Assembly: GCA_017303755.1 (NCBI GenBank)
Contig: JAFLBS010000007.1
Span: forward strand, 92,470-156,469
Direction of reading: 5' to 3'
Length of the DNA: 64,000 nucleotides
Source of the DNA: Flavobacteriales bacterium
Lineage (GTDB): Bacteria; Bacteroidota; Bacteroidia; Flavobacteriales; Flavobacteriaceae
The notes below the pieces were generated by a model. That model ran no database searches and was not told where the DNA came from. It worked only from the letters and a program-made list of their open reading frames with translations. Shown here piece by piece: positions 13,780 to 33,316 of the stretch (the stretch's first letter is position 1; every line of letters begins with the position of its first letter). Position numbers and translations under genes: made by a program.

Positions 13780-15018
13780 CTATGAACTTTTCGCAACTAG
13801 TTGAGGTGCTAATTTTTGCTTGAGAATAGCCATATCATCACTAACTTTTCTATCAACTACTTTTGCGTAATGTTGCGTGGTTCTGATGTTAGTGTGACCA
13901 AGCATTTTGCTCACGCTTTCTATCGGAACGCCATTTGTAAGCGTTATAGAAGTTGCAAATGAGTGTCGTGCAAGATGAAAAGTTAATTCGGTTTTAATGC
14001 CACAAACATCACCAATTTCTTTTAGATAGCTGTTCATTTTTTGATTGCTTAGAACAGGAAGGATTGTTTCTTCATTTATGCACTTTGGATGCGATGCATA
14101 CTTTGCCATGATTTGTTCTGGAATAGGAAGTAATGGAATTTTTGAACTGGTATCGGTTTTTTGCCTGTTCTTGAAAATCCATTTGTTGCCATCAATACCA
14201 ATTCCAATATGATCAGAAGTTAATTGTTTTACATCGATGTAAGCAAGACCTGTGAAACAACAAAATATGAAAATATCACGCACTTGAATTAATCGTTCAC
14301 AATGAAACTTCTTGTTGTAAATAGTTTCGATTTCGCTCTCAGTTAAAAAATCTCTTTCAACTTCCTTGATTTTTCCCTTATACTTTACAAATGGACTTTC
14401 AATAATCCATCTGTTATCCAAGCAGATTTGAATTATCTTCTTGAAGTTTTTGATGTATTTTACAGTTGTATTGTTACTGCAACCACGTTCAGTTCTCAAG
14501 TAGAAATCGTAATCGGTTATAAAAGCTAAGTCGATATCCTTGATATTAATATCTGAAATATTGAATTTCCATTTCATGAATTCTTTAGTATGGCTAAGTG
14601 AAGTTTTGTAACGTTCTAATGTTCCTGGAGAATATTCTTCAGTCTTTACTAAAGCTTCAATTTGATCATTGTGATTTTGAAAGATGGGTACTAGTGTTCG
14701 CTGTTTTTCAGTTTTGCCTGTCAGCACATTATTAAAAACTTCGGCAGTAATGTCCTTATCAACTGCGATTAGTTTCTTTTCAATACTAGAATTTTTTGCA
14801 ATCAGTGAATCAAGGTGGCTATTTATTGTTCTAGCTTCTTCAGAAGTGCCTTTCATTCTGCCTGCTTCTGTTGACCATTTTGTAGGATCAATGTACTTTC
14901 CGGTGCTTTTGTCAAGGCGTTTTCCGTTGATTGTGGTTCTGTGATAAATTGGAACTAGTCCGTGTACATTGGCTTTCGCTCTTTTTAGATAAAAAAGATT
15001 TGTGATTGTTGCTTCCAT
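13780..15018 (-). CDS. int: Tyrosine integrase (Bacteroidota NBU/CTn type) of the left island
   Basis: Arm-binding N-domain, SAM-like domain, R (FTGLAY family variant), HLARHSFAT, LGH, Y (TQHYAK). Adjacent to the att copy at 15269. Confidence 0.95.
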   Translation of the reverse strand: MEATITNLFYLKRAKANVHGLVPIYHRTTINGKRLDKSTGKYIDPTKWSTEAGRMKGTSEEARTINSHLDSLIAKNSSIEKKLIAVDKDITAEVFNNVLTGKTEKQRTLVPIFQNHNDQIEALVKTEEYSPGTLERYKTSLSHTKEFMKWKFNISDINIKDIDLAFITDYDFYLRTERGCSNNTTVKYIKNFKKIIQICLDNRWIIESPFVKYKGKIKEVERDFLTESEIETIYNKKFHCERLIQVRDIFIFCCFTGLAYIDVKQLTSDHIGIGIDGNKWIFKNRQKTDTSSKIPLLPIPEQIMAKYASHPKCINEETILPVLSNQKMNSYLKEIGDVCGIKTELTFHLARHSFATSITLTNGVPIESVSKMLGHTNIRTTQHYAKVVDRKVSDDMAILKQKLAPQLVAKSS

Positions 15019-15268: not shown

Positions 15269-15285
15269 GCGGAGAAAGAGGGATT
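15269..15285. repeat. att core: duplication of the tRNA-Ser 3' end
   Basis: GCGGAGAAAGAGGGATT, identical to 61200-61216 (17 bp). Confidence 0.95.
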
Positions 15286-16011: not shown

Positions 16012-16770
16012 ATGGCTAGACAGAAAGGCATAATTAAATTAAAAGGTACTATCGGAGATATTACTTTTTACAAAACGCAAGATGGACACTTGGCAAGAGA
16101 AAAAGGCGGAATTGACGCTAGTAGAATTGCAAGTGATCCAGCGTTTCAAAGAACTCGTGAGAATGGTTCCGAGTTTGGCAGAGCAGGAAAAGCTGGGAAG
16201 CTTTTGCGCACTGCTTTAAGACCATTACTTATTAATTCTGCTGATGGTAGAATGGTAAGTCGATTAACCCAAGCTATGGTTAAAGTTATTCAAGCTGACT
16301 TAGTGAGTGATAGAGGTTTGCGTAACGTTATTGATGGAGAAGCTGAATTGTTATTTGGTTTTGAATTCAATATTCGTGGTAAATTAGGTACAAGCTTGTT
16401 TGCACCATTTGTAGCAACAATTGATCGTGTTGCTGGTGAAATTTCAGTTGATATTGCTTCGTTTATTCCTGCGAATATGATTGCTGCACCAAGTGGAACT
16501 ACTCACTTCAAAATTATTTCTGGCGGTGCTGAGGTAGATTTTGAAGCTGAAACGTTTGTTGTTGCTACTTCTGAAACTGCAATTTTGCCATGGGATGCAA
16601 CACCAACAGCTGTTATTAATCAAGTGAATGCGGTTACTGCTGCTAGTACGAAACCTTTGTTTTTGGCTTTGGGAGTTGAATTTTATCAACAAATTAATGG
16701 AACTATGTATCCGCTGAAAAATGGTGCATTTAACCCATTATCTGTTGCTAAGGTTGACAGTGGTGTGTAA
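16012..16770 (+). CDS. Conserved hypothetical protein (252 aa), candidate structural protein
   Basis: Strong A-rich leader, basic N-terminus (MARQKGIIKLKGTIGDITFYK), helical middle, beta-rich C-half. Coupled to the next gene. Confidence 0.8.
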   Translation: MARQKGIIKLKGTIGDITFYKTQDGHLAREKGGIDASRIASDPAFQRTRENGSEFGRAGKAGKLLRTALRPLLINSADGRMVSRLTQAMVKVIQADLVSDRGLRNVIDGEAELLFGFEFNIRGKLGTSLFAPFVATIDRVAGEISVDIASFIPANMIAAPSGTTHFKIISGGAEVDFEAETFVVATSETAILPWDATPTAVINQVNAVTAASTKPLFLALGVEFYQQINGTMYPLKNGAFNPLSVAKVDSGV

Positions 16771-17169: not shown

Positions 17170-17790
17170 ATGAAAAATTTATTGAATACAATCGTTTTTA
17201 AATCCCTAGCATTATTTGCAATGGTTTTGTTAGTAGCTTTTGCAGTTACTACAAGTTTTAACCCTTTAGATCAATCTAATGATATTGGAGGTAAAAACAA
17301 AGATATTATTAAGCATACAACTGATACTCCTATCGCGGATATTGGTGGTGGTGGAAAAGGAACCTCAACCACTTTGAAAGCAGATATTGGAGGTAGCAAA
17401 GGTATAAAAGGTGAAGTTATCGACAATCAATATGAGATTTCTGATATTGGTGGAAGAAATACTAATACTACTGGAAACTTTTCTGTTGACGATATCGGAG
17501 GAAGAAATGGAACAGGAACTTCAACTGGTGGTGAATTTCAAATTACAGATATTGGTGGAAGAAGTACAACTTCAACTGGAAATTACACTTCAAATGATAT
17601 TGGTGGTAGAGGAACAAACACAGGGACTGGAGAATATTCAATTTCAGATATTGGAGGTAGAAGTACCAATTCAACAGGAAACTTTGCTTCAAATGATATT
17701 GGTGGTTCAAGAGATCATGTAATTATTAGAAGAATTCCAATACCATTTGCATCCGAAATTGGTGGAAAAAGTACAACAATTGGTCAGTAA
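17170..17790 (+). CDS. Secreted protein with ten (D/E)IGG repeats
   Basis: Hydrophobic signal peptide, then ten (D/E)IGG-anchored Gly/Thr/Ser/Asn-rich units of about 15-21 aa. Confidence 0.85.
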   Translation: MKNLLNTIVFKSLALFAMVLLVAFAVTTSFNPLDQSNDIGGKNKDIIKHTTDTPIADIGGGGKGTSTTLKADIGGSKGIKGEVIDNQYEISDIGGRNTNTTGNFSVDDIGGRNGTGTSTGGEFQITDIGGRSTTSTGNYTSNDIGGRGTNTGTGEYSISDIGGRSTNSTGNFASNDIGGSRDHVIIRRIPIPFASEIGGKSTTIGQ

Positions 17791-17817
17791 TTTTCGTTGA
17801 ATTTAAAAACTAAAATT

Positions 17818-18030
17818 ATGAACTTAATTAAAAGAGCAAAAGCTCCGACACCAAAATTTTTTAAAGTGCTTCGAAATATTGGTTTGGCGTTGGCTGCCGT
17901 TGGTGGAACTATTTTAGCTGCTCCAATTGCTTTGCCTGTAATTGTAACTACCATTGGTGGTTATGTTGCGGTAGCTGGTGGAGTTTTGTCAGCTGCAAGT
18001 CAGCTTACTACAACTGATGACAGCCAATAA
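17818..18030 (+). CDS. Small hydrophobic holin-like membrane protein (70 aa)
   Basis: Basic N-terminus and two hydrophobic segments. ATG at 17818 preferred over the track's TTG at 17797. Confidence 0.6.
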   Translation: MNLIKRAKAPTPKFFKVLRNIGLALAAVGGTILAAPIALPVIVTTIGGYVAVAGGVLSAASQLTTTDDSQ

Positions 18031-18193
18031 TCCCACATTGATGGGAACTGCTGGAGGTACATTTTTAAGTATAGTACCGAATATTCATTCTGAAGACATT
18101 GCAAGAACAGTTATTTTAGCTACTGTTGGAGCTGTTGTCAGTTTTACGATTTCGTTACTGCTTAAGAGCATAAATAAGAAGCACAAAAAATAA
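18017..18193 (+). CDS. Small membrane protein, holin-like (58 aa)
   Basis: ATG at 18017 overlapping the previous gene, TM helix TVILATVGAVVSFTISLLL, basic tail KSINKKHKK. Confidence 0.6.
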   Translation: MTANNPTLMGTAGGTFLSIVPNIHSEDIARTVILATVGAVVSFTISLLLKSINKKHKK

Positions 18194-18484: not shown

Positions 18485-18904
18485 TTATTTAATATATCTG
18501 TGCAAAATAACTCTCCGCATATCATTGATAAGATTTAGATTTTCATGGAAACGTTTTTCGCTTTGTTCCAAAAGCTTTAAAGTTTCGATATTCTTAACGT
18601 GTTCCTTATGGTCTTTTATCTCTTGGTTGACTTTTATTGAAAATTCTTTTCTAATGTCGTATAAGCTCAAAAATGGGATTACTGAACCTCTAAGGAATTG
18701 ATGCCAAAATTTTGTTTTCCAAAGTGCATAAGCCGTTAAATTGATAGTGTCAAAATCAGATTCGTTTTCAAAAATGATAACAAAACTGTTTGTAAATGGC
18801 TCTATTTGTGGCTTTCCGCTGTTCATTCCTTTGTTAAGCAGGAATAAATGTGGTTTTGTGTAGATAGTTTCTTTTCTGTGGCTTTTAATGATAAATTTCA
18901 GCAT
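18485..18904 (-). CDS. DUF6943-like protein
   Basis: FLLNKGMNSGKP...FTNSFV...LRGSVIPFL pattern, typical of Bacteroidota mobile elements. Confidence 0.7.
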   Translation of the reverse strand: MLKFIIKSHRKETIYTKPHLFLLNKGMNSGKPQIEPFTNSFVIIFENESDFDTINLTAYALWKTKFWHQFLRGSVIPFLSLYDIRKEFSIKVNQEIKDHKEHVKNIETLKLLEQSEKRFHENLNLINDMRRVILHRYIK

Positions 18905-19046
18905 AACATCGGGTTTAAAAAATTAGATTAATTTTCAATTTTTTGTGGTGTTTCTTATGAAATGCAGTTGTGCCTCGCTACGCTCCGCCCATTAAAATTT
19001 TTCAAAAGAAAAAAAGAAAAAAAAGAAAGCCATTCGTCCAAGTGGA

Positions 19047-20306
19047 AGGTTTCAAAAAAGCAAGTTTTTCAGAAAAAATACTACCCGATAAGTGATTGAA
19101 ATCGTTAGCATCTAATCGAAAGTAGTATGTATTTTGAAACTGTTTGGGTGGAGATTTTTTCTGAAACCCGCAGGGCTTGAACTTGCTTTTTTGAATACCT
19201 GGAACTTATCTTTGCTTCCTTTTTTTTTTATTTATTTTGAAATTTCAATCTGTTGTTCTTATAAAATCGAAGTTGATTCTGAAGTAATGAGAGTTGAATT
19301 GGAAGATGTTCGTCTTCGGAAAGGGTATCAAATTCTTTGGATGGATGAATAAACCAAATCAGAAAATAAAAAAGCTATTCATCCGGCCAAAGAATTTGAT
19401 ACTCTTTCTTGGATTTGATTTTTGAGGATGCCTAAAAGTCAGTTGCAAGTGGCAGTGTTCAGTTAGCAGTTAATAATCTTATGGAAATGGGAAGCATCTT
19501 CAAAAAACAATGCATTATACTGCCGAGTGCGATGTGGCAGTAGCGCAAGTAAGGGTATCATTTTTTATTTGCTTATTGGGATGTTTCTGATTGCTTTAGT
19601 GGAAAAGCTGATGCCTGAAATTCAGTTGACAGTCGCAGTGTTCAGTATTCGGCAGATTATCTTAAAAAACGGTATGGCATCAGCTTTTTCGCTGGAGCAA
19701 TTATTACTTGTTTTCTGGCAAATAAAAAATGATACTCTTACTGGGGATTTTGGTTTTGTGGGTTCTAAAAATGGCTTTACCATAGGCAAATAATTAAAAG
19801 TTAAAGCCATTTTTAGAACTTACAAAAGCAATGAAAACACTTCCTATTTAAACGCAAAGTTGATAAAAACAGTTACCGTGAACGTTCATAAAAGCAATGG
19901 TAACCGAAACTATTCCTATGATATGGTAAATGTTCTTAAAGACAGTGGCGAAGGACGGTTTTTTTTGTAGCTGGGTGATGCGATGGGAGCTACAAAAAAA
20001 GTTGTCCTAGAGCCACTGGCACGAGCGTTGGGTGAGCGGCTTTTTTACATAATGTTATTATAGTGCATCCGAGATTTTGATTAGTAGCAGGATAGTCCCT
20101 ATGCACTATAATGCAACATTATGTAAAGAAGCTTGGGAAAAAAAATTACTGGCATGAGTTGCGAAGCGTACGTGTTTTTGTTTTGTGCGTTGGGCAAGCT
20201 CTTTGGCTGATGGCGTGCAGGATTTTTCAATTTACATATAATTTTCTTGCCATCAGGTAAAGTGCTTGATGAGCGTTGGGACAAAAACCATGACAGTAAT
20301 TTTTTT
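19047..20306 (+). other. Non-coding array of about eight long imperfect hairpins
   Basis: Stems: 19051-79/19154-95, 19323-51/19376-404, 19419-31/19494-506, 19589-615/19676-702, 19754-79/19802-27, 19943-72/19988-20018, 20039-68/20101-32, 20139-56/20289-306. Confidence 0.85.
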
Positions 20307-20335
20307 AGGAGCGTTGGGAAGGAGTGGCAATAAAG

Positions 20336-21262
20336 CTATAATTGAATATTTTTGATATAAAATCCTAACTCATATTCAATAGAATCACTCTCTAAATCAG
20401 GATCAATATCGATTTCTTTTAATACTAATTTATTATTTCTTGTGTCTGTATAAGAATCAATTGCTTTAGGGATTTCTATACCAGTAATATCTTCAATAAG
20501 AGAAATGTTAACTTGATAAGTGTCTGCATCTTTAAATTGCATAAAAAGTTGGTCTTCTGATTCTAATTCTTCTATAATATGATTTTCTTGAAGCAATTTA
20601 TTCTGGCTCATCATAAACCCGACCCTGTAAAGATTCCCATCTTCTTTTTGAAAAACAACGACTTTCCAAAACAGAGAAGGGATTTGTATTTGTTTACCAT
20701 TTATAGGTGTTACAAAATATGGATTTGAACTTAATAAAACTGGACCTGTAAAAACACAAATACGTAATTCATTTCGCTTTGTTTCAGTATGGAGTATGTA
20801 ATCCTCTAAACTTCGCCATATATCTCTATTTAAATCTTTGTGCTGTGGAACTGCATTCGTATAATAAAATGTTGAGTTAGCAGCATTTAAGGCTATCCCA
20901 GGAGTTTCTCCCCATTGTACGTCTTCCCGTTTAGTCATATGACCTTTGTCAAAATCACTTTTTAGGGCACTGTAGAGTTCTTTACCCATTTGAAACTCTT
21001 TGGATAATCTTGTGTCTTTTCGCCAATTATCCTTTCTTGGAACTTTCTTAAATTGAATTCCATCAATATTTGTTGCTGTATAGAATGGAAACTTGTGAGA
21101 TGCAGATTGTTGTAAACTGTAATTAATGTATTTTATAACTTTATTACCTTCATCATCTGAAACCAAATCATCATTTTGGTCTGAGCTAAGATTAGGTAAA
21201 AGTACCGTTTGGTTTGAGATGAATTGTTCATCATAACCTTGAAATAATTTTTCACTTATCAT
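20336..21262 (-). CDS. DNA/RNA non-specific endonuclease (NucA/EndoG His-Me finger), no signal peptide
   Basis: FDKGHMTKR, TFYYTNAVPQHKDLNRDIW..LEDY, VFTGPV, IPSLFWKVV. Confidence 0.93.
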   Translation of the reverse strand: MISEKLFQGYDEQFISNQTVLLPNLSSDQNDDLVSDDEGNKVIKYINYSLQQSASHKFPFYTATNIDGIQFKKVPRKDNWRKDTRLSKEFQMGKELYSALKSDFDKGHMTKREDVQWGETPGIALNAANSTFYYTNAVPQHKDLNRDIWRSLEDYILHTETKRNELRICVFTGPVLLSSNPYFVTPINGKQIQIPSLFWKVVVFQKEDGNLYRVGFMMSQNKLLQENHIIEELESEDQLFMQFKDADTYQVNISLIEDITGIEIPKAIDSYTDTRNNKLVLKEIDIDPDLESDSIEYELGFYIKNIQL

Positions 21263-21266
21263 AAAT

Positions 21267-22298
21267 TCAGTTTTTATGGTTGTCTTTTACAAATTGAATA
21301 ATTTTATTAATGAAAATACCTTCATTCCGTGATTTGATTCCTGTAGGAAGTTCTGGCTCTCCTGGTCTACTTCCACCTCCACTATGATGTAAAGCTACTA
21401 CTTCCCAATCTGAATTAAATACGGGAGAACCGGAAGATCCTTTTAATGTATCTGTGAGATATTGAACAACTCGGCTGTCTGTATGGGTTACGATGTTATG
21501 ATAAAGAGAAATTTGTTTCATTTCTCCTCCAGGATGCTGAATAATATTAACGAAATCATTTGGTTTTATTTCAACATCATTTAGTTCTATATATCCGTAT
21601 GAGTCTAATTCTCCTTGTTCATGAATGAGTTTACAAACTATTGTGTCATATTCATTTACAGTAGACCAATATATGGGTTTATTTTCATCAATATGGAAGC
21701 CTTTAGAAGGAATGCTGTTACCGTTTATATCCAATTCATAATCAAAAATAATTTTAGTTTTAGCAATGCGATTTTCATCTTTGATAACATGATAATTAGT
21801 AATAAAAAACAACTCATCGATGCCCTTCACCTTGAAGAGAAATCCGGTACCAACATCAAAACGATTGCTACCTACCTTAATTTCTACTTTTCCAACAGCT
21901 TTGCTTTTCTGAACTCCTTTTGCTAAAAAGTTAACAGGAAGCAAAGTACTACGCCCCATTGTCAAAACTTCTAGCGTTTCTTCAGCGACATCTTGCCATT
22001 TGGAAACTTTATCAATATCCGGGCTTAAAGAATAATCAATTTCTTTTGTAGCCAAAGCCGATTTTAAAAATGGATTATCAGGATAGGTGTCTAATACAGA
22101 TTTTACTAATTCATCAACTTTACTGTTCTTGTCTGCTTCACTTAGAACATTGCTCCAAACGTCCATAGCGTTACCACTTTCATTTATATGTTGTGGTTTC
22201 AGCCCTGCTGCTTTTACATATTTTGTGATTCCATCCTTATTAGGAACCAAGTCACTTAAAACATCATTTAATTGCGTAAGTTTTTTTGTCCAAGCCAT
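21267..22298 (-). CDS. EAD1-trypsin-like (V8-type) serine protease
   Basis: N-terminal ~80-aa EAD1-like domain. Catalytic triad TNYHVI, YDTIV, GSSGSPVF. Confidence 0.92.
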   Translation of the reverse strand: MAWTKKLTQLNDVLSDLVPNKDGITKYVKAAGLKPQHINESGNAMDVWSNVLSEADKNSKVDELVKSVLDTYPDNPFLKSALATKEIDYSLSPDIDKVSKWQDVAEETLEVLTMGRSTLLPVNFLAKGVQKSKAVGKVEIKVGSNRFDVGTGFLFKVKGIDELFFITNYHVIKDENRIAKTKIIFDYELDINGNSIPSKGFHIDENKPIYWSTVNEYDTIVCKLIHEQGELDSYGYIELNDVEIKPNDFVNIIQHPGGEMKQISLYHNIVTHTDSRVVQYLTDTLKGSSGSPVFNSDWEVVALHHSGGGSRPGEPELPTGIKSRNEGIFINKIIQFVKDNHKN

Positions 22299-22299
22299 T

Positions 22300-23445
22300 T
22301 TATATAAATATTTGTGGATAATCTACTGTTACTCTATCAACAAGGTTTTCTACCATTTCTTTTTTGATACACAAATCAATAAGTTGGGAAGACATATTGA
22401 CCGCCGAGTCTTCTACCAATAAAGAAACATTCACGCCAATTTTTTTTGCCAAAGTTCTAACTGATACACTGGATTGATAATATTGCGGAAGCTTTATCAT
22501 TAACTCTTCTACCGATTGCTCCTTGAAATATGCTCCGCGAATTCTCTCGTATAGTAAGTTTAGTTTTGCCTTTTCAGAAGTACTCGATAATTCTGATGGG
22601 CATAAATACCTAGATTCAAAAATTGGATTTACTATATTGGGATTTAAAAGGTATTCACCGTTTCGTCCTTCTTTCTTTGCATATTCTTTAAAGAAATGTT
22701 CAATTTCACTATTAACATTTTTCACTTTACTATCTGCCGTTACATATACAAAGTCATAAAAAAGACTATCTTGATATTCGTATTCCATTAAAGAAAAAGG
22801 ATGATAAGCGACAGGATAATTTCTTTCTAATACTTGGATTTTATCAATAGAATCAATTACCAAATATCCTCTGGGTATATCTTTGGTTGAAGCAAATTTT
22901 GATGCCCAGTAAATATCCATTGGTAGCCATTTAGCACCTCTAATCATAACGCAATCTCCTTGCTTGATTTTCAAATGATCGTAAACTTCAGGGAAGCATA
23001 ACAAAGGAATCCCAGTAGATGCATTACAACCAGCACTAACTGATAATAATACTTTTCTTTCATCAGTCGGTGGTAATAATAATGTACCTACACCTCCCAT
23101 CACTTTTTTAGATTTCCCAGGAGGATAAAACTCTATCCACTGCTTACTTTGTAAAGCAATATCTTCCATCTTATGCTGTCTTATTTGTTCTGATGATGGA
23201 GTCCAATAAAGTCCAGGAACACGAGCAACCCAATCGGAAACTACAAAATCGTATAAGTCAATTTTTTGGTTCCAATATTTAGTGGGATCAGCAATTACGT
23301 TTCTCCAAAACTCTTCATCATTAGAGAACCAAAAGTTTTCATAATTTGAAATATTTTCATTTAGAGAGTTTACTTCTTCAGCTAAAGCATAATTCTCTAT
23401 AGTTTCAATGAGTTTTGTTCCTTTGTATAATTCTTTTAGGCCCAT
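22300..23445 (-). CDS. Unknown ~305-aa domain with a C-terminal EAD1-like domain
   Basis: The last ~70 aa align by eye with the trypsin N-domain (L...YY...V..LAK.IG...LV..V..DYP). Confidence 0.7.
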   Translation of the reverse strand: MGLKELYKGTKLIETIENYALAEEVNSLNENISNYENFWFSNDEEFWRNVIADPTKYWNQKIDLYDFVVSDWVARVPGLYWTPSSEQIRQHKMEDIALQSKQWIEFYPPGKSKKVMGGVGTLLLPPTDERKVLLSVSAGCNASTGIPLLCFPEVYDHLKIKQGDCVMIRGAKWLPMDIYWASKFASTKDIPRGYLVIDSIDKIQVLERNYPVAYHPFSLMEYEYQDSLFYDFVYVTADSKVKNVNSEIEHFFKEYAKKEGRNGEYLLNPNIVNPIFESRYLCPSELSSTSEKAKLNLLYERIRGAYFKEQSVEELMIKLPQYYQSSVSVRTLAKKIGVNVSLLVEDSAVNMSSQLIDLCIKKEMVENLVDRVTVDYPQIFI

Positions 23446-23451
23446 AATCAG

Positions 23452-25989
23452 TTATGTTTTTATGAAGTTTTTTCTTAAATCATATATGATTTTAAACTTC
23501 TGGTTTTCCCCATATTGTTTTTTTACTTCTTTAAGTAAATTGTTCATTGTTATTTCTTTGAAGTGCTCCTTGCGTAATTTATAAAACACATTACTCCAAA
23601 TTTCGCTTGATGTTCCTTTTGCGAGTAGATCAGATTCTTTTCCTCCTGCCTTTTTCCAAATTGTTGTTAATGAAGTCCCATTTGGATATAGCTCAACAAT
23701 TAATTCTTCTGCACTTTGCCACCATTCATTTGTTGGAATACTAACTGAGGATAAAATACCTGAAAATGATAAAAGTCCTTTGGTTATAAAGTCAAGAAGG
23801 TGGTGACATTCTGCTAATGCAAATTTCCAATTATTGTTTTTGGAAGCTTTGGAATTAATTATATAAGTTGAATTGGAAAATCGTCTTTTTGCTATCAGTT
23901 GCCCCAATTGAGTCGCGTCAATAGAACTAATTTGTCCTGAAAAGTTATTCAAATAATCTCGAAGATTACTGTCGCTCAACTGAGAAAATCTATCAAATAC
24001 TTGAATTACAGATTTAAGATTATTTCTATTGAAATACAAGAAATCAGCGATGCCCTTTCTACTTATGTGATCCAACAAAACAGCATCATTAGGTATCTCA
24101 ATGGTTGAGTTTTTACTGAGTTGTTCAAGTAATTCAGCAGACGTTTTGATTAAGAAATTGTCTTTTGCAGATGAAGGAAATTTACCCCATAAAATAGTCC
24201 TATTAGGATACGTTAGTAGATTTCCAAATTCGGAGTGGGAAATTTTATTAATAAGTCTTTCAGAAACCACATTGCCACCAATAAGATGGTCAAACAATTT
24301 ATGTATTTCTTTTTGAGGCTCTTTTAAACCAGAATCCACTTGATTTCCATTTTCAATTGCCTCAGCCCAAATTAGCTGCCAGTTGTCATTTAAAACATCT
24401 ATTCTCTTCAGATTCTTAGATGAATAATGGCAGATTTTACCGGCAATTTTAATCATTCGAGATTCACCAGTATCAATAGCATAATCAACAATTGAGTTAT
24501 CATCTTTTCCTGTTACTATCGCCTCAACAGCTTCAAAATAATTTTCATCCTGATCAATTTTGAATAGTTCTGTTAGAGCAGTACCTAATTCAAATTGCCT
24601 ATCCAATAGATATGCGTATAACCTTAGCCAATTATTGCTAATAGAGAATTCTTGTAGTTCTTCAATAAGTTCCTTTGAAATTTTCTTAGGTAACTTTTCA
24701 ATAAAACAGCTTTCAGCATTTTTGGATTTGTCGATAAAAGATTTAATTATGGACAGAATGAATGGTGATTCCATTAACCAAGTGTAAACAATAGCAATCT
24801 TGGAAGCTTGAGCGGTTCCTAAGTAGGATTCAAGCTCTTGTGTTATTACTTTATCCCACCAATTCGGATTACTCTTTTTTACCTGCTCAAAAAATGAGGT
24901 ATATCCAACTGATTTATTTTCAAGTGAAAAAATATATTTCTTCATCCAGCCTATTAAAGCTGTTGATAAAGTTTTTTTTGAGTTCTTGAAGCTCTCCGTT
25001 TTGAAATTCCTTAATATATTTAGGTCAGAAAAGTTTGCCGATTCTGCTAATTGGACAATCTTATTTAATAATAGTTGCTTAAAATCTGTACCTTGTTTGT
25101 CCGAATGAGCATATTCTGCTACAATATGTGAAAGGGTATTTAGCTTTTTAAGATCTCTTACGCTGTCTAAGTGTTCAAAAGTATCAATACCTTTCGCTAT
25201 TAAGGCAATATCTTCTCGTGAAAGAGACTTTGATTCAATCGCTTTCTCGAAATTGCTAATACGTTGTTGAACGGACACATCACCAATTAATAATTGTTCT
25301 ATTAACTCGGTAGGTTCATGGTTGTCGTTCTTTCCAATAACAAAGAAGTCCGATCGGAGAAACTTGCTTTGAACACTTTCAGGTACAGCAATTAGGCTTA
25401 TGTGATTAGTTTCTTTATGGTCATTATTGAATGCAATACCAAACTGAAAATTTGGTCGTTCAATAACGGTTAGACGTTTCCACAACTCTATAACCGCTGT
25501 GTCAAAACCTTCCTGCCCAATCCATATTAATGTATTCTTATGGCTGTTTATGTTAATATAGCCATTAATAAGTTTGTTGAATTTGCCCCGAATAGCATCC
25601 GGTATACCGACGGCATCATTTGAGGACATTTCTATTGAAATCGGTTCCAGATCCGTACTCTTATTTATTTCTTGGGGTAATAGACTTATAATTTGCACTA
25701 TATTATCTATTTTTATTATTTCTTCTTTCTGAATCATCAGAACATGAGAATATTTCCTGCCTCTTCTTACATCAGGAGCTGTATCCTCAAATGTTTTCAT
25801 AATCAAAAAATAGTCTCCTTCCGAAAATCCGCGAATAGCAGGCTCCCAATTAACTCCACTAGTTTGATCTTGTAAATCCGTCCTAAAGGCAATGCTCTTA
25901 GCGATATTAACATCCGGCAAGGTAGTTTTTATTAAACCCCATGCTTTATTCACTTCTCCGCAAATGGATTGATGTATTATTACTTTCAC
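23452..25989 (-). CDS. GAP1-type (GTPase-associated protein 1) with a C-terminal EAD1-like domain
   Basis: N-terminal IHQSICGE..D...G..YFLIMKTF.D...RRGR..SHVL (GAP1-N1-like), long helical middle, C-terminal ELYPNG...IWKKAGG...IWSNV. Confidence 0.75.
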   Translation of the reverse strand: MKVIIHQSICGEVNKAWGLIKTTLPDVNIAKSIAFRTDLQDQTSGVNWEPAIRGFSEGDYFLIMKTFEDTAPDVRRGRKYSHVLMIQKEEIIKIDNIVQIISLLPQEINKSTDLEPISIEMSSNDAVGIPDAIRGKFNKLINGYININSHKNTLIWIGQEGFDTAVIELWKRLTVIERPNFQFGIAFNNDHKETNHISLIAVPESVQSKFLRSDFFVIGKNDNHEPTELIEQLLIGDVSVQQRISNFEKAIESKSLSREDIALIAKGIDTFEHLDSVRDLKKLNTLSHIVAEYAHSDKQGTDFKQLLLNKIVQLAESANFSDLNILRNFKTESFKNSKKTLSTALIGWMKKYIFSLENKSVGYTSFFEQVKKSNPNWWDKVITQELESYLGTAQASKIAIVYTWLMESPFILSIIKSFIDKSKNAESCFIEKLPKKISKELIEELQEFSISNNWLRLYAYLLDRQFELGTALTELFKIDQDENYFEAVEAIVTGKDDNSIVDYAIDTGESRMIKIAGKICHYSSKNLKRIDVLNDNWQLIWAEAIENGNQVDSGLKEPQKEIHKLFDHLIGGNVVSERLINKISHSEFGNLLTYPNRTILWGKFPSSAKDNFLIKTSAELLEQLSKNSTIEIPNDAVLLDHISRKGIADFLYFNRNNLKSVIQVFDRFSQLSDSNLRDYLNNFSGQISSIDATQLGQLIAKRRFSNSTYIINSKASKNNNWKFALAECHHLLDFITKGLLSFSGILSSVSIPTNEWWQSAEELIVELYPNGTSLTTIWKKAGGKESDLLAKGTSSEIWSNVFYKLRKEHFKEITMNNLLKEVKKQYGENQKFKIIYDLRKNFIKT

Positions 25990-26816
25990 AATAATGCCTG
26001 CTCTATTAGTTCTGTAATGTCATTTGTTTGGACGCCATCAGGCAATACTAAATATCCAAATTCTTCTGGTCCCTCAATCTGATATTTTTCTTTGTTCTCC
26101 GGTGTAGTCAGAGAAAACCCTTGAGCAGAAAGACCAACTAAGTTCAGATAATTTTCATCCCAGTTAGACTCCAAGAAGTTTAATAAAAGTGGTAATTTAG
26201 ATTGCAATACATTATAAGGCTTTTCTTCTGTATTCATTTCATCCCAGCAGGTTAAGACAATGGTCAACTTCGGCTTATCATTTACCTTATGGTAGTCTGT
26301 TCCTTTAGCATGTAAAAGGATTTGTAATAATTCGATAAAAAAGCTTTGATCCGATATTTTATACTCGGTTTCAGAAACCGGCTCTTTCGCATTTTTATGA
26401 TGTTGTTCAGAATAGGTAACATCACTGATATCTAAAGGCTTGTTTACATTATTTAACCTGATAAATAAAATCCAGCTGTTACTTTCCTGTATGGAAGCTG
26501 TCCATTCTTTATTTAACTCCCGATTTTCAACAATACTTAAAACCTGTTCTCCTCCATATTCGGGACATTTTAAATCAACCTGCTTTTCAGCTACCTGAAT
26601 AGGTAAGTAAAACTTCACACTTTTTTCAGATGGAGTTGTCTGTGGTTCTTCTCCTGATGCTAATGCTTCTCTTGCCCCGGAAATAGGAGATAGATCATCC
26701 ACTGATTTATAAAGCTTCAGCTTACTCTTATTTTTCTGCAATTTTGAGTAAAATTGTGAAAGGAATACTGTCTTGGATGAATGTGGTTTTCCGATAAGTA
26801 ATATAGATGTACCCAT
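25986..26816 (-). CDS. TRAFAC-clade GTPase domain protein, degenerate motifs
   Basis: G1 GKPHSSKT, G3 EYGGE, G4 TCWDE. Confidence 0.8.
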   Translation of the reverse strand: MGTSILLIGKPHSSKTVFLSQFYSKLQKNKSKLKLYKSVDDLSPISGAREALASGEEPQTTPSEKSVKFYLPIQVAEKQVDLKCPEYGGEQVLSIVENRELNKEWTASIQESNSWILFIRLNNVNKPLDISDVTYSEQHHKNAKEPVSETEYKISDQSFFIELLQILLHAKGTDYHKVNDKPKLTIVLTCWDEMNTEEKPYNVLQSKLPLLLNFLESNWDENYLNLVGLSAQGFSLTTPENKEKYQIEGPEEFGYLVLPDGVQTNDITELIEQALL

Positions 26817-27776
26817 TTATGTGCTTTTATAATTTAAGAAAATGTCATTTACCGTGCTATCATTTTCAATTAGAATTTCAGACTTGCTTACAGTAAACAC
26901 TCTGGAAAGTAGCCAGTCCAGTACAGCAATGTTGTTCTTATGAACTAATACATCAGGATCATCTGAAGAAAAATTACTGATATCTATCTCTTTATAGTTC
27001 TCAAAAAGTTCTTTCAACTCTCCTTGTAGCTTTTCTCGAATTACTGCATGCACTTCTTCTTTTTTATCACTTTTTGACCAAACAGCAATAACGGGTCTGT
27101 TTCTTATATCGTGCCTTAACATTTGTGCCATATCCACGATGTCAGTCTTTGCCAGAGCCTTTCTATTAATCAAATCATCACAATCAATAAAGAGTATAAA
27201 AGCATTTGAATGTTCATAAATCCATCTGGCATTCTCCGCGTTTTCATCATTACGATTTTTTGACCAAATAGAAAAAACCTCACCAGATGCATCAGATATT
27301 AAAATGTCTTTTAATTTTTTTTTCTGATTTCGTAATGCCAAATGCAATAAGCGGATGTATTGAGCGGGAGTAGGATCAGGAAATGTGACACCTTCTTGTT
27401 GAACCCTCAATTTTTGATATAATTCATCCCAAGCATTTATTGTTTGCGTACCGCAAAAGTCAAATTCTTTAAGTTTTATACCTCTAAGAAGTAATGTAAA
27501 AAGCATGGCGAGATATGTTGTTTTCCCTGCATCAGCTTTTCCTATTACACCGATGATTAGAGGGGTATTTCTATAGGTTATTTTGGGCAATTCATCTATA
27601 GTCAAAGCGTCCCCTGTCCATGGCAAATCGGATTTTTTCTCTTTTTTTGGAGCACTTTTGGTTTTGGATTGCGGTGCATTTGACTTCATCCAAAACTCAC
27701 ATTCCGTAGGCTTTTCTTTTCCTTCATGGCAACTGATTGGTGCAGCACAGTCAGGATTTGAACACTTTCCTGTCAT
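26817..27776 (-). CDS. TRAFAC-clade GTPase with a Cys-rich N-terminus
   Basis: G1 GKADAGKT, G2 PDPT, G3 DASGE, G4 SKSD. N-terminal C-x4-C-x5-CH-x8-C. Confidence 0.85.
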   Translation of the reverse strand: MTGKCSNPDCAAPISCHEGKEKPTECEFWMKSNAPQSKTKSAPKKEKKSDLPWTGDALTIDELPKITYRNTPLIIGVIGKADAGKTTYLAMLFTLLLRGIKLKEFDFCGTQTINAWDELYQKLRVQQEGVTFPDPTPAQYIRLLHLALRNQKKKLKDILISDASGEVFSIWSKNRNDENAENARWIYEHSNAFILFIDCDDLINRKALAKTDIVDMAQMLRHDIRNRPVIAVWSKSDKKEEVHAVIREKLQGELKELFENYKEIDISNFSSDDPDVLVHKNNIAVLDWLLSRVFTVSKSEILIENDSTVNDIFLNYKST

Positions 27777-27777
27777 A

Positions 27778-29025
27778 CTACTTTGTATTTAGAATTTTTA
27801 CTAATTGAAAGTCATGAAATAACCAAGTGGTCAACTCATTTGGAGCTAGTTTTATATTTAATCGTATCCCTACAAACTCTTCAAATTGAGCTAACTGATT
27901 TTTATTCCATATGAGCCCATTGATGAAGTTTAGCAATGTTGACTTTCCTGTCAATGCTTCAGTCTCGGGAAATATGGGTTTCAATTCCTCTGTATGCTCT
28001 TGAATAGATTTGAGAAAGTCTTCAAGGGTTAGTTCTTCCTTCGTACTTTCTTTTAATCCTTTATAAGTTTCTTTCAGAAAATAATCAACGCTTTTTGGGT
28101 AGATCACTGGGATAAAGATTGAATAATCATAAGCCAAGACTATTCCCAAAATACTTTTATCCAGTTCATCATAACTTCTATCTGTAGAGGCTGAATACCC
28201 AGCTTCTTTCCACCACAACAGTTCTGATCTTAGCTGTAATGATTTATTTCTATTCGAAACTTCCTTTTGTACTTGTTCTAATGCTTTATTTAAACTGTTT
28301 TGAATTGTGTTTTTATTCTCATTTACAACAGAAGCAATAGCTCTTAAGGAAGGATCTATTGCGCTTTTTATTCCTTGTGCAGCTTTGGGAGCAAATTGAT
28401 ATGACCAGTGTTGCCCTTGATTAGGCCAATATTGGTTAGGAGAATCGAAATTCGCAGTTCCCTGTGCATTGTGTTGTCCTGACGCATCTTCCAAGTGTTT
28501 TTGAAGCGTCTCTTTATTAATTAGGTAGGCTGAGATTTCCTTAAGTTCAAAACTAATTTTTGATAAGGAGTCACTGCCTGACAATACCCATTCTCTGTTA
28601 GCTTTTTGATTGATATCATTGCCCAACCTGGAAATAAACTCTAATATAATTTCTTTTTCTTTCCCAATCAGCTTATGATATTGAACAATGTTTCTGCTGG
28701 CAAACCAAATAAATAGGGAATGATTAACATCTTCGCTTATGCAGCTTAAAGCCTCCAACATAACCGCCCTAATATAGGTTAGAGGGGTGTCTTTTGCATT
28801 GGTAGCAAATGTGCTCCAATTCTTTATTATGACATCTTTGACTTCTACTATGTCAGCATTGTCAATAGAAGTATCAGTGTCAATTGCCGATAGTGTATAT
28901 GACACTATTTTAGCTTTACTTTTTGCCAATTTTTTAGAGATATCGTCGGCAGACTTTTTTAATTTTTTGAAATCGCCATCATCTGTTAGTGAGAGAAGAT
29001 TAGCGTTTAAGTAATTTTGTAGCAT
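27778..29025 (-). CDS. All-helical protein, GASH-like (GTPase-associated system)
   Basis: 415 aa, helical, ELLWWKEAGYS motif, immediately upstream of the GTPase pair. Confidence 0.7.
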   Translation of the reverse strand: MLQNYLNANLLSLTDDGDFKKLKKSADDISKKLAKSKAKIVSYTLSAIDTDTSIDNADIVEVKDVIIKNWSTFATNAKDTPLTYIRAVMLEALSCISEDVNHSLFIWFASRNIVQYHKLIGKEKEIILEFISRLGNDINQKANREWVLSGSDSLSKISFELKEISAYLINKETLQKHLEDASGQHNAQGTANFDSPNQYWPNQGQHWSYQFAPKAAQGIKSAIDPSLRAIASVVNENKNTIQNSLNKALEQVQKEVSNRNKSLQLRSELLWWKEAGYSASTDRSYDELDKSILGIVLAYDYSIFIPVIYPKSVDYFLKETYKGLKESTKEELTLEDFLKSIQEHTEELKPIFPETEALTGKSTLLNFINGLIWNKNQLAQFEEFVGIRLNIKLAPNELTTWLFHDFQLVKILNTK

Positions 29026-29034
29026 ATTTCTTTT

Positions 29035-31404: not shown

Positions 31405-31405
31405 C

Positions 31406-32629: not shown

Positions 32630-33262
32630 TTATAAGTTCAAATTCACATTATCGATATAAAACTGTAATTCGTATAAATGAATAAGCTCTTCATGGTTAT
32701 TAGGCATTTGAGCTAGTTGTACGAAATTGATGTTTTGATATACTGATTTCTCACCCAATAAATCCTGTATTATGATGTAGATGGCTTGTTCCCACGTTTT
32801 GGTGTTGCAATAGAGTTTGAAGTTTTTTAGATACACCGTTATATCTAATTTTTTAGTTTGCTCGTCATAATTGAGCGGTAGGAATTTGATTTCACTGGTT
32901 TTGATTGTTATTTCTTGGAATACATAGGGTTCGTCTAATCCTTCTATGATTTTGTCAATGCTATCAGTTGGTTGGATGAAAGCTGTGAACTTCCAATGTC
33001 TTAAGGCAGGTGCTTTTTTGATTAATTCGGTTACTTGAGCAAAGTATTCCGGATTGCCATTGGCCGTAATGATTAATTCGGCTTTTTCCTTTTCTTTCTT
33101 GGGAAATATTATTAAAAAATCTAATTCCTTGCAGTAATAGCCCAAATGTCTGTTTAGCCAAAAGTAGAGGTGCTTTTGCGTTTTTGGTGTTTCGTTGATT
33201 AGGTTTTTGATGGTTTGGTTGTTGTCTTGGAACCAGTTCCAGAAGGTGTTTATTTTTCTCAT
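32630..33262 (-). CDS. Conserved hypothetical protein (210 aa)
   Basis: FWNWF...ELIITANGN...APALRHWKFTAF. Clean ORF, function unclear. Confidence 0.75.
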   Translation of the reverse strand: MRKINTFWNWFQDNNQTIKNLINETPKTQKHLYFWLNRHLGYYCKELDFLIIFPKKEKEKAELIITANGNPEYFAQVTELIKKAPALRHWKFTAFIQPTDSIDKIIEGLDEPYVFQEITIKTSEIKFLPLNYDEQTKKLDITVYLKNFKLYCNTKTWEQAIYIIIQDLLGEKSVYQNINFVQLAQMPNNHEELIHLYELQFYIDNVNLNL

Positions 33263-33288
33263 AGGATTATTTTCGAGTTATGAATTAT

Positions 33289-33313
33289 GGGTTCCAGCCT
33301 TCGCGGGAATGAC
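33289..33313. repeat. REP/RS3-like short palindrome
   Basis: GGGTTCCAGCCTTCGCGGGAATGAC, ending in GGAATGAC like the 4081 element. Confidence 0.45.
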
Positions 33314-33316
33314 AGT

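Follow-up and report, generated by a model that had tools for sequence, protein, structure and literature searches.

Among the closest described counterparts of the locus reported here are the Frpo and ssi elements, promoters and priming signals of single-stranded DNA (ssDNA) in the leading regions of conjugative plasmids such as F and ColIb-P9 (Masai and Arai 1997, as cited in PMC11541004). Leading-region ssDNA promoters need a hairpin on the strand that serves as the template of the gene (PMC11541004). Like these elements, the locus in our window (the whole 64-kb stretch of DNA that was analysed) has a long hairpin in the template strand, upstream of a small and possibly early gene, with a promoter-like box on the non-template arm in a mismatched bubble, in a mobile-element setting with defence and anti-defence genes close by. 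Specifically, the stable hairpin H1 lies in the template strand of the downstream DUF6943 gene. Unlike Frpo, which is one hairpin of about 300 nt per gene, the locus is an array of eight hairpins over 1.4 kb; its promoter elements are Bacteroidetes-type at best and poorly conserved, it has no recognised oriT or relaxase, so that no leading region can be defined, and its host is an integrative Bacteroidota island rather than a proteobacterial plasmid.

ICEBs1 (PMC4595007) and rolling-circle plasmids have single-strand origins (sso); these and the PriA-type primosome assembly sites resemble the array in being strand- and orientation-specific, highly folded non-coding DNA. Such sites recruit RNA polymerase or the primosome, from which the complementary strand is started, and the island that carries the array encodes a DnaC-like loader. 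The known sso elements are, however, 150-300 nt long and come with a relaxase or Rep protein and a double-strand origin, none of which is found at the array. Likewise, the intergenic region of the Ff phages, which serves as packaging signal and as minus-strand origin (the entry site of RNA polymerase), is a non-coding hairpin cluster that folds only in the packaged + strand. It measures about 500 nt with five hairpins, and the phages also encode a rolling-circle initiator and a Zot-like ATPase, both of which are missing here. Furthermore, all Ff genes are sense on the folded strand, whereas most of the island genes are antisense.

In the attC sites of integrons, the folded bottom strand is the template strand of the cassette genes. 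The array has in common with them a conservation of structure over sequence, the folding of one strand that is the genes' template and terminal loops that vary; a few loci also have a gene between two hairpin copies. Unlike attC sites, it has no R and L core boxes, no IntI and no cassettes, and its hairpins stand back to back, are orthologous and keep a fixed order. Among RNAs, OLE, GOLLD, ROOL and raiA are similar in size range and compensatory changes, GOLLD and ROOL also in their association with mobile elements, and H1 recalls 6S RNA in being a long hairpin with a central bubble. Unlike the large non-coding RNAs, the array is a series of long, simple stems whose loops vary, it lacks multi-helix junctions and conserved tertiary motifs, and the abundance typical of such RNAs was not seen.

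No RNA or DNA element described so far matches the array, and it was not found to be covered by any paper, annotation or Rfam family. In an Rfam search such as the earlier note had proposed, no family matched the array at gathering or permissive thresholds: the sole match of the window in Rfam 15 was the tRNA-Ser, the best score of the array was 34 bits against thresholds of 84-100, from unrelated miRNA hairpin models, and the Flavobacteria 6S models did not match. No blastn match was obtained in 20,395 E. coli replicons, PLSDB or phages, and the known Frpo and ssi elements have no sequence similarity to the array.

The island and its hairpin array

The array is located inside a ~46-kb tRNA-Ser island of Flavobacterium that is bounded by a 17-nt direct repeat. 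The repeat (GCGGAGAAAGAGGGATT) is exact, and its second copy lies at 61200-61216 inside the tRNA-Ser (61200-61285). The features of the island around the array are as follows.

15269-15285, no strand assigned: distal attachment-site repeat, a copy of the tRNA-Ser 3' end
18485-18904, - strand: DUF6943 gene, 139 aa (Pfam PF22105, E 5e-49)
20336-32494, - strand: variable cargo slot with defence genes (Endonuclease_NS, Trypsin-EAD1, GAP1/DO-GTPase1/2/GASH, IetS/IetA)
32630-36214, - strand: backbone genes beyond the cargo (RteC, HTH_17 excisionase-like, 274-aa, DnaC-like AAA+ ATPase of 203 aa, 210-aa)
59683-60939, - strand: island tyrosine integrase (Pfam Arm-DNA-bind_5, Phage_int_SAM_5, Phage_integrase), adjoining the tRNA-Ser

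Another integrase gene (13780-15018) was rejected as the island's own since the 17-nt repeat places it outside, in a tandem neighbour. IetS (E 0) and IetA (E 4e-135) were identified with PADLOC and the other cargo domains with Pfam, as were RteC (E 1.5e-87) and HTH_17, and the 203-aa ATPase matches the PHROG "DnaC-like helicase loader" (E 1e-14). The variable defence slot adjoins the array directly, and other loci carry different genes in the slot, directly past the terminal box of the array; in one of them (L078), the five backbone genes lie about 1.7 kb from the array. The island encodes neither a relaxase nor a reverse transcriptase, in agreement with the earlier note. No relaxase, coupling protein or oriT was recognised in the 46-kb island or the window, the island has no mating genes, and a search for a helper element gave none. 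Among island ORFs of at least 90 aa, none encodes an HUH or Rep protein.

The non-coding interval 18905-20335 (~1.4 kb) contains eight long hairpins, H1-H8, with stems of 18-57 pairs.

18971-18991, + strand: conserved box GTGCCTCGCTACGCTCCGCCC, rich in GC, which would form the 5' side of a long-range closing helix, P1
18996-19030, + strand: polypurine (A-rich) tract, 5' base of H1, opposite the T-run 19219-19238
19018-19228, + strand: H1, composite hairpin, 57 pairs (helices 7-11)
19207-19215, + strand: unpaired conserved motif TATCTTTGC, internal loop in the H1 3' arm
19229-19318, + strand: variable T-rich linker, poorly conserved, a site of gene insertion elsewhere
19319-19408, + strand: H2, 28 pairs, variable 30-nt loop (helix 12)
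19415-19510, + strand: H3, 18 pairs, variable 58-nt loop (helix 13)
19546-19743, + strand: H4, composite, outer 26 and inner 25 pairs (helices 16-18)
19750-19831, + strand: H5, 24 pairs (helices 19-20)
19832-19940, + strand: mostly unpaired spacer with conserved motifs CAATGAAAACAC and GATAAAAACAG and repeats D5 and D8
19941-20018, + strand: H6, 30 pairs (helices 22-24), three consecutive conserved G-T wobbles
20038-20137, + strand: H7, 29 pairs (helix 25), arms almost invariant
20139-20306, + strand: H8 (helices 26-28), base formed by an A-run paired with a T-run
20181-20281, + strand: extra 101-nt hairpin nested in H8, stem 20195-20214/20249-20268, flanked by GCGTTGGG repeats
20283-20331, + strand: terminal conserved segment ending in CAGTAATTTTTTTAGGAGCGTTGGGAAGGAGTGGCAAT, border between array and variable cargo

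The folding energy of the + strand at 19047-20306 was -450.8 kcal/mol, compared with -307 +/- 8 for shuffled sequences (z -17.8), and that of the - strand was -347.5 kcal/mol, compared with -228 +/- 8 (z -14.9). Both strands fold far better than shuffled sequence, so that the earlier claim of good folding on the + strand only holds in substance, the + strand being favoured, but overstates the case with "only". The most stable 150-nt windows of the entire 64-kb scan fall in the array region. Only 102 of 1072 indels are multiples of three, a codon phase is absent, and the longest ORFs (45-124 aa) have no conservation. A decayed coding sequence was rejected on the phase of the indels and because no ORF is conserved. 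Folding, indel phase and ORFs together bear out the description in the earlier note of a 1.3-kb non-coding array of about eight long hairpins. Every stem that it listed was also recovered in place: 19319-51/19376-408 (33 nt, 91%), 19590-615/19676-701, 19750-79/19802-31, 20039-56/20115-32 and, in H1, 19051-66/19180-95 and 19067-79/19154-66.

The stems had further been described as unrelated in sequence, which is partly wrong. The outer stems of H2 and H4 (AAGGGTATCA/TGATACTCTT) are paralogous, and so are the loop of H3 and the inner loop of H4 (repeat D1; 55 nt, 76% identity). The array is nevertheless not a repeat family, as the note had stated: no second copy of any array segment occurs in the 64-kb window, which disposes of a MITE cluster or a REP-like palindromic family, and other genomes carry it as an orthologue in a syntenic position, which argues against a dispersed repeat family.

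Selection for folding of the + strand

The array is selected to fold as the + single strand, as had been proposed from the sequence of the window. In the alignment of homologues, 95% of the cells were paired and 111 pairs had changed on both sides, compared with 39-56 in slid controls, which is strong covariation. Across 45 homologues, helix positions held G-T on the + strand versus A-C in a ratio of 1353:133; in the window itself the ratio was 27:2, and even for a structure derived from the - strand the count was 573:340 in favour of the + strand. The bias was observed in each hairpin, with ratios of 120:2 in H1, 102:9 in H2, 53:8 in H3, 226:12 in H4, 77:13 in H5 and 227:10 in H6. Pairs changed on both sides numbered 14 in H1, 17 of 28 in H2, 19 in H4, 13 in H5, 16 in H6, 8 in H7 (where 13 pairs never vary) and 13 in H8, and pairing amounted to 97-100% in H1, 93.6% in H2, 95-99% in H4, 94-99% in H6 and 97.5% in H7. 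Invertible promoters and other double-strand recombination repeats were rejected because a 10:1 asymmetry of G-T over A-C is unexpected for duplex sites, and a structure in the leftward mRNA (a terminator or DUF6943 leader) was rejected because the wobble pairs sit on the opposite strand. Several G-T pairs are invariant, including three consecutive ones in H6 and another three in helix P2, which is a predicted helix.

The individual stems carry this signal, whereas the long-range helices (helices 2-5 and 14) are almost without covariation support. The predicted helix P1, formed by the box GTGCCTCGCTACGCTCCGCCC and 20309-20329, has 13 pairs that are 87-89% paired, with little covariation and mostly one-sided changes; the box itself is kept even in distant DUF6943 loci. 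The apical loops of the hairpins are hypervariable and rich in indels, and whole modules have been deleted or duplicated. H4 has a small side hairpin at 19579-19588. The extra hairpin in H8 is found in some genomes only and is missing from most homologues, and the joint without it (20180 to 20282) is present in both DNA and RNA metagenome contigs. The terminal segment is 88-98% identical between loci, and homology stops there.

H1 accompanies DUF6943 throughout the family. Its predicted fold as DNA has an energy of -47.4 kcal/mol (z -6.8). The apical part (19087-19145) is variable and missing in some loci, and the hairpin carries a conserved bulged mini-hairpin, CCCGCAGGG. The 3' arm reads AAACCCGNAGGGCTTGA ... 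TATCTTTGC, and the strand opposite the TATCTTTGC loop is variable. The motif TATCTTTGC matches the Bacteroidetes -7 promoter box TAnnTTTG, but could equally be recognised by a protein or be a nick-like site. A single occurrence of TAnCTTTGC combined with the polypurine tract was counted in 45 of 90 records; other loci have the variants TACCTTTAC, TAACTTAGC and GAACTTTGC. The polypurine tract is near-invariant (45 sequences) and present where DUF6943 is only 27-35% identical, an equivalent of H1 is present in the distant loci L085-L088, and H1 is retained even at a DUF6943 protein identity of 27%.

The same array was found in about 65 of 80 related Flavobacteriaceae loci, always directly upstream of the DUF6943 gene, which is the constant neighbour of the array across the 80 loci. 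Cultured carriers include Flavobacterium columnare ATCC 23463 (L009), F. faecale WV33 (L026) and F. aquatile LMG 4008, which has two copies (L047 and L060). A scan of one genome per species yielded 330 DUF6943 loci, and the family comprises 434 clusters at 50% identity. An AF2 model of the protein (pLDDT 95.4) had as its top Foldseek matches Type I S subunits and methyltransferases with S domains, with weak E-values (5e-3 to 0.2) on which two libraries nevertheless agree. The modelled fold thus appears to resemble the HsdS target-recognition domain of Type I restriction-modification systems with a long helix added, and such a protein would be compatible with an early anti-restriction or establishment role. 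The array is thus a frequent element of deep conservation. It lies precisely at the boundary at which islands of Flavobacterium exchange defence systems, and it provides a first functional handle on DUF6943. Whichever molecule is folded, it marks the island family for genome annotation.

Single-stranded DNA or RNA

We tentatively place first the hypothesis that the array is a cis-acting element of an ssDNA phase, whose hairpins would prime synthesis or act like promoters and might include an origin of transfer. The data show the structure, its conservation and strand specificity, its linkage with DUF6943 and its island setting; the DNA nature of the single-stranded molecule, the mobilisation of the island and the identity of the bound enzyme are inferred. 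The island might be excised and mobilised by a helper conjugative element, or might replicate on its own, whereby the + strand would become single-stranded. The eight long stems could then persist as duplex islands and serve as entry sites for host enzymes, either for assembly of the primosome or primase (ssi/sso-type) or for RNA polymerase (Frpo-type). Synthesis of the complementary strand would start from the stems, and genes templated by the + strand would be expressed early, DUF6943 first and then the cargo and backbone genes, all of which are on the - strand. H1 would be the best candidate for a specific protein site: TATCTTTGC lies on the arm expected to be non-template if transcription ran leftward into DUF6943, or might alternatively represent a nick-like site in an origin of transfer borrowed from a helper.

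Several lines of evidence lead us to this hypothesis. First, pairing is strand-specific in each hairpin, and the + strand is the template of DUF6943, as the earlier note had pointed out, and of all of the about 20 genes to its right. Secondly, the stems are independent, long and near-perfect with variable loops, which suggests duplex islands in SSB-coated DNA rather than a compact RNA fold. Thirdly, the host island has an integrase, a CTnDOT-type RteC and an HTH_17 excisionase-like protein and no relaxase. A preprint describes relaxase-less, oriT-only islands with adjacent defence gene clusters as a common class (bioRxiv 10.64898/2026.01.13.699239). The DnaC-like helicase loader is a possible partner for primosome-type sites, and the HsdS-like fold of DUF6943 would also suit the hypothesis.

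The idea of an Frpo-like promoter fares less evenly. The geometry of H1 on the + strand fits, with the -7-like box in a bubble, and in double-stranded DNA the leftward strand has no such box at the same place. However, the box is not strictly conserved, as it varies in about half of the records and some variants break TAnnTTTG; the spacing to the upstream TTG (the -33 element) is 21 nt in the window but unconserved in distant loci; and the predicted start in H1 falls within a pyrimidine run. Exact sites of such a motif numbered 29 in 128 kb (both strands), so that one per 1.4 kb is not rare by chance, and a scan for a canonical DUF6943 promoter was uninformative because most genes in the window lack a strict motif. 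Besides the lack of a recognised oriT, relaxase or helper element and of sequence similarity to Frpo and ssi elements, other observations count against the ssDNA hypothesis as a whole. DUF6943 is the only gene to the left of H2-H8, which leaves seven of the eight hairpins without an assigned target; the tandem G-T wobbles in H6 and the wobble-rich P2 would be stabler as RNA than as DNA; and RNA-seq contigs extend over the array and not over the p252 operon, which makes an RNA product possible.

An RNA is in fact nearly as likely, and the present data do not separate it from the ssDNA element. Rightward transcription on the + strand, either diverging from the DUF6943 leader or overlapping with it, would yield a large non-coding RNA about 1.1-1.4 kb long and highly structured. 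Such an RNA might act as a scaffold or decoy for a protein (e.g., DUF6943), give rise to RNase III-processed hairpins or be antisense to read-through from the cargo. G-U-compatible covariation suits RNA equally well as DNA, the invariant G-U pairs (the run of three in H6 and the three in P2) would be at home in an RNA, and the G-rich composition of the array is like that of the sense strands of the genome. Moreover, a Bacteroidetes-type TTG-N21-TATCTTTG on the + strand could start rightward transcription of the double-stranded form near 19221. That sole promoter-like site is located inside H1, however, and would give a transcript without the 5' arm of H1, yet H1 is selected on the + strand; no conserved promoter was found upstream of H1.

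The transcription data can be read in both directions. RNA-seq contigs of one Flavobacterium isolate cover the array in three of four runs at a modest depth of 5-17, and no contigs of the adjacent p252 operon were obtained from the same isolate. These reads are strand-blind, and leftward mRNA read-through would give an identical signal; the depth is like that of ordinary genes and not above it, unlike abundant structured RNAs. The array is also present in wastewater metatranscriptomes, but its depth there tracks the profile in DNA metagenomes and was dropped as evidence for RNA. No reads mapped in the raw-read runs X45-X48. Stems of 25-57 perfect pairs would be substrates of RNase III, which counts against an RNA. 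Furthermore, conserved loops, junctions and supported long-range helices are all absent, there is no + strand gene downstream to regulate, and the only Rfam matches of the array at any threshold were to generic hairpins far below the cut-off.

If the array is an ssDNA-phase signal, it would show how relaxase-less Bacteroidota islands become established after transfer, and the Frpo/ssi concept would reach past proteobacterial plasmids; if it is an RNA, few conserved non-coding RNAs of bacteria that lack a known role would be as large. The ssDNA hypothesis can be extended, at a somewhat lower likelihood: the Flavobacteriaceae might harbour a very large and so far unrecognised family of "hitcher" islands without a relaxase, and the array would be the cis-acting module for their transfer and establishment. 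H1, with its nick- or promoter-like motif, would be oriT-like, the other hairpins would be a battery of single-strand initiation sites or promoters that reach a recipient as folded DNA, and new defence genes would be captured at the same hairpins. If so, the array would be the first set of ssDNA-phase signals for mobile elements of Bacteroidota, and by far the largest known.

Module turnover and the less probable readings

The turnover of modules raises the question of whether the hairpins are recombination or capture sites in folded ssDNA, loosely attC-like, and the array a landing pad that builds the cargo slot. We consider this improbable. The cargo differs directly past the terminal box, the cargo genes have the folded strand as their template, like the attC bottom strand, and inserts occur in several loci: in L075 and L021, a gene segment of 1.3-1.8 kb has H8 plus the terminal box on either side, as direct copies, and 1.0-1.3 kb is inserted between H1 and H2/H3 in L027 and L030, flanked by duplicated H2-H3 in L027 and located between H1 and H2 in L030. 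The extra hairpin bounded by GCGTTGGG is, furthermore, polymorphic in nature. Ordinary unequal recombination can explain the duplications, however, and in most loci there are no genes between the hairpins, which are orthologous, ordered and conserved in sequence across genera. The paired RYYYAAC/GTTRRRY cores are missing at the stem bases, and GTTGGG occurs in the array only inside the GCGTTGGG boxes, without an AAC partner. There is no IntI, both integrases being of the Bacteroidetes arm-binding type and one of them about 40 kb off. The sequence GCGTTGGG has four + strand copies in the array and one elsewhere in the 64 kb, compared with 0.35 expected, but it is absent from the borders of the cargo genes and was rejected as a cargo junction signal.

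Less probable still is that a small virus-like or satellite element with an ssDNA stage replicates and is packaged by means of the array, much as filamentous phages use their intergenic hairpins, and that its particle or release module is formed by the adjacent p252, DUF5675, two small membrane proteins and a secreted, glycine-rich protein: the analogy with a strand-specific hairpin cluster in a non-coding region, the name "Phage major capsid protein" of some UniRef homologues of p252, the match of DUF5675 to the phage family phrog_1501 and a 50-aa protein (18041-18193) with an acidic N-terminal part, hydrophobic core and basic tail, which we read as inovirus-coat-like, are set against the absence of p252 relatives from 50,697 phage records and IMG/VR, the absence of a rolling-circle initiator or Zot-type ATPase from the island (Pfam, PHROGs, NCBIfam), an AF2 model of p252 that is unusable for searching (pLDDT 45) and the island size of about 46 kb.

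Some minor observations concern the surroundings of the array. A link with Type VI secretion was discarded since such genes adjoin the module in L081 only, and the - strand ORF "o56" proved to be a spurious antisense reading of a real membrane-protein gene on the + strand. The hexamer TAGCGC at 19541-19546 appears to resemble the CS-6 box of ssoA origins.

Folding, strand and conservation of the array

The DUF6943 gene (18485-18904, - strand) is separated from the first cargo gene (20336-21262, - strand) by 1431 nt that hold no credible gene, and all of the inverted repeats listed in the earlier note were found at 19047-20306. Folded as a single molecule, the + strand of 19047-20306 reaches -450.8 kcal/mol, where dinucleotide-shuffled versions give -307 +/- 8 (z -17.8), and a 150-nt scan across all 64 kb placed the most stable windows in the array region. 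The - strand also beats its shuffles (-347.5 versus -228 +/- 8, z -14.9), as inverted repeats necessarily do on both strands. The earlier claim that good folding is restricted to the + strand thus stands insofar as this strand folds better, but not as an exclusive property.

Non-Watson-Crick pairs are, as had been noted, almost all G-T on the + strand: helix positions contain 27 G-T (pairable on + only) and 2 A-C (pairable on - only) in the window sequence alone, and 1353 versus 133 in the whole alignment. When the reverse-complement alignment was refolded to remove bias from the + derived structure, its energy was weaker (-365.6 versus -431.9), and on the resulting structure G-T on + was still ahead of G-T on - (573 versus 340). 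The bias is present in each hairpin separately (120:2 in H1), and the GC skew of +0.2 is insufficient as a cause of a tenfold asymmetry. The molecule under selection is therefore the single-stranded + strand, whether RNA or DNA.

A DUF6943 protein scan with one genome per species returned 330 loci, of which 80 were kept. About 65 of the 80 have the whole array, 1.0-1.4 kb long, immediately upstream of DUF6943 at 67-87% identity; loci without a detected full array are mostly cut by contig ends, and a few beyond BLAST detection have an ORF-free kilobase that is significantly folded on the same strand. The consensus structure derived from an alignment of 45 array sequences has 28 helices and 307 pairs, with 95.1% of cells paired (46-51% with slid partners), 111 pairs changed on both sides (39-56 when slid, 71 +/- 3.6 when shuffled) and a covariation score of 0.21 (about 0.05 and 0.10, respectively). 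Covariation, like the + strand fold, exceeds its controls. Only 102 of the 1072 indels in the array alignment are multiples of three and codon phase is absent from it, which rules out a decayed coding sequence. The array is a conserved, structured, non-coding element.

Anatomy and plasticity of the hairpin modules

Features of the array, in order from the DUF6943 side
DUF6943 end of the array: AT-rich start region
18971-18991: GC-rich box
18996-19030: near-invariant polypurine tract
19018-19228: H1, composite, 57 pairs; apical 60 nt variable or absent
After H1: variable, T-rich linker
19319-19408: H2
19415-19510: H3
19546-19743: H4, composite, 26 + 25 pairs
19750-19831: H5
After H5: spacer of about 110 nt, mostly unpaired, with conserved motifs
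19941-20018: H6
20038-20137: H7
20139-20306: H8
20309-20329: terminal box, bordering the cargo slot

Long, nearly perfect stems carry large loops that are hypervariable and indel-rich. Two long-range helices (18971-91/20309-29 and 19521-31/20024-34) are predicted and conserved; since they barely covary, we do not count them as part of the established structure. The stems had been described as unrelated in sequence, which does not hold for all of them: the outer stems of H2 and H4 share AAGGGTATCA/TGATACTCTT, and the H3 loop is 76% identical to the H4 inner loop over 55 nt.

Whole modules come and go among the loci from other genomes: H3-H4 are missing from L006, H2-H3 from L065 and L070, and H4-H5 from L031, hairpin modules are duplicated in L027 and L020, and inserted genes split the array in L030 and L027. 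In L075 (571-1925) and L021 (1274-3230), a gene segment of 1.3-1.8 kb lies between two direct copies of H8 plus terminal box, an arrangement that looks cassette-like. The window's own H8 contains an extra 101-nt hairpin (20181-20281) bounded by GCGTTGGG repeats, and wastewater metagenomes and metatranscriptomes contain both this form and one that lacks the hairpin. GCGTTGGG has four + strand copies in the array and one in the rest of the 64 kb, versus 0.35 expected.

Distant loci, in which DUF6943 is 27-35% identical, retain the polypurine tract, a nested hairpin, an unpaired TA(T/A)CTTTGC and a T-run. To judge from these four shared upstream features, H1 is tied to the DUF6943 gene family-wide and H2-H8 are a separable addition. 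The DUF6943 family comprises 434 clusters at 50% identity, nearly all stand-alone proteins of about 140 aa, and we found no mention of it in the literature searched. Its AF2 model, for which 64 diverse members were used, is confident (pLDDT 95.4), and in both structure libraries it most resembles Type I restriction-modification specificity subunits and methyltransferases that carry a fused S domain (7eew_A, 1ydx, 7vru_C, 3okg, viral M+S enzymes), with weak E-values of 4e-3 to 0.2. The likeness is one of fold, and on it we tentatively interpret DUF6943 as a putative miniature target-recognition domain joined to the conserved helix.

The island around the array

The surrounding chromosome is Flavobacterium-like (30-35% GC, T9SS-sorted proteins, SusC/D). 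A strong 150-nt fold at 3551-3700, upstream of a SusC-like gene (-51 kcal/mol on +, -40 on -), is unrelated to the array. The 17-nt sequence GCGGAGAAAGAGGGATT forms the 3' end of tRNA-Ser at 61200-61216 and recurs exactly, in direct orientation, at 15269-15285, and a tyrosine integrase (59683-60939) adjoins the tRNA; the island therefore extends from 15269 to 61216, about 46 kb. A tyrosine integrase lies about 250-260 nt past each repeat copy (start codons 15018 and 60939). Because its placement matches that of the island integrase, the gene at 13780-15018 belongs to a neighbour outside the island, with two islands in tandem. In two other loci an integrase beside the module is directly followed by an RteC homologue (L032) or a homologue of the 274-aa protein (L041), as would be expected if islands of this family accumulate in tandem at one tRNA site.

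Gene content of the island from its distal end
Distal end: Xis-like protein, 67 aa
+ strand operon: 252-aa protein (16012-16770), DUF5675, glycine-rich secreted protein (17170-17790), two small membrane proteins (17818-18030, 18041-18193)
After the operon: 63-aa gene, DUF6943, array
Beyond the array, defence cargo: Endonuclease_NS, Trypsin-EAD1, then
23452-29025: GTPase-associated system (GAP1-N1, DO-GTPase1/2, GASH)
29035-32494: adjacent IetS/IetA pair (PADLOC E 0 and 4e-135)
Beyond the cargo: 210-aa protein, DnaC-like ATPase, 274-aa protein, HTH_17, RteC
Past RteC: about 23 kb of accessory genes

IetS/IetA also have the non-specific endonuclease and the Trypsin-EAD1 protein as neighbours. 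Across other genomes, the stretch from the 252-aa gene to the array forms a constant module, and the genes past the terminal box differ, including SMC/HNH-type systems and an imuB-dnaE2 cassette. The only variable gene of the otherwise constant operon encodes the secreted 206-aa protein, with about nine glycine-rich DIGG(R/G) repeats. In the 50-aa membrane protein (18041-18193), an acidic N-terminal part precedes a hydrophobic core and a lysine-rich tail. A 56-aa ORF on the opposite strand (17784-17954) was rejected as an antisense artefact, despite tblastn matches in 75 loci.

Readings of the array

We rank first, tentatively, the hypothesis that the array acts in a putative ssDNA stage of the island. 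DUF6943, as the earlier note had recognized, and all genes to its right have the folded strand as their template; the array is built of modules, a row of very long stems whose loops are dispensable, and a tertiary architecture for it is unsupported; and the island combines CTnDOT/NBU-type regulators with a lack of transfer genes, which is the profile of oriT-only hitchers. No relaxase, coupling protein, mating-pore gene, rolling-circle initiator or reverse transcriptase was found in the island, in line with the earlier claim for relaxase and RT. Hitcher islands of this type have recently been described, with defence genes clustering beside oriT (bioRxiv 10.64898/2026.01.13.699239).

H1 also has the geometry of a Frpo-type promoter for DUF6943, the only candidate target gene proposed for any of the eight hairpins. 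Its TAnnTTTG-like box is oriented towards DUF6943 and occupies a bubble on the non-template arm, and none is present on the leftward strand of the duplex at H1. The promoter reading is weak because the spacing of the upstream element is not conserved, about half of the records have a variant box, the predicted start is a pyrimidine and motifs of this kind are not uncommon by chance alone; a nick-like or other protein site is an equally good reading of the motif.

By function, the closest systems are Frpo/ssi signals, single-strand origins and the intergenic region of filamentous phages. The array belongs to none of these: it is several times larger and lacks a partner relaxase or Rep; no sequence similarity to it was found in E. 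coli replicons, PLSDB or phages. We classify the array as a strand-specific folded cis element belonging to a mobile island, although it may well prove to be a new large RNA instead.

A structured + strand RNA, which we place a close second, is the other surviving reading. Contigs from four small, unstranded RNA-seq runs of one Flavobacterium isolate are identical to the L009 locus over the array in three of the four runs (depth 5-17), with a depth of 12-36 over the flanking region and zero over the adjacent 252-aa operon. By these unstranded contigs, transcription of the array region is of ordinary strength, and the conserved wobble runs also agree with an RNA; however, no promoter is placed to include H1, there is neither a defined transcript nor high abundance, and Rfam holds no relative. 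The array was also found in wastewater metatranscriptomes, a signal that is uninformative about RNA because DNA metagenomes show an equal relative profile.

That the hairpins are attC-like gene-capture sites would account for the gene segments that lie between hairpin copies, but is improbable, since both the integrase and the core sites that define attC are lacking. Least probable is a virus-like element with a single-stranded stage, whose sole supports are the database name of the 252-aa protein and a coat-protein-like 50-aa peptide. A few UniRef entries name homologues of the 252-aa protein "Phage major capsid protein"; the protein has no match in Pfam, PHROG or PDB, and its relatives are absent from phage and IMG/VR collections. 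It has 6755 homologues and is 90-100% identical across many Flavobacterium species.
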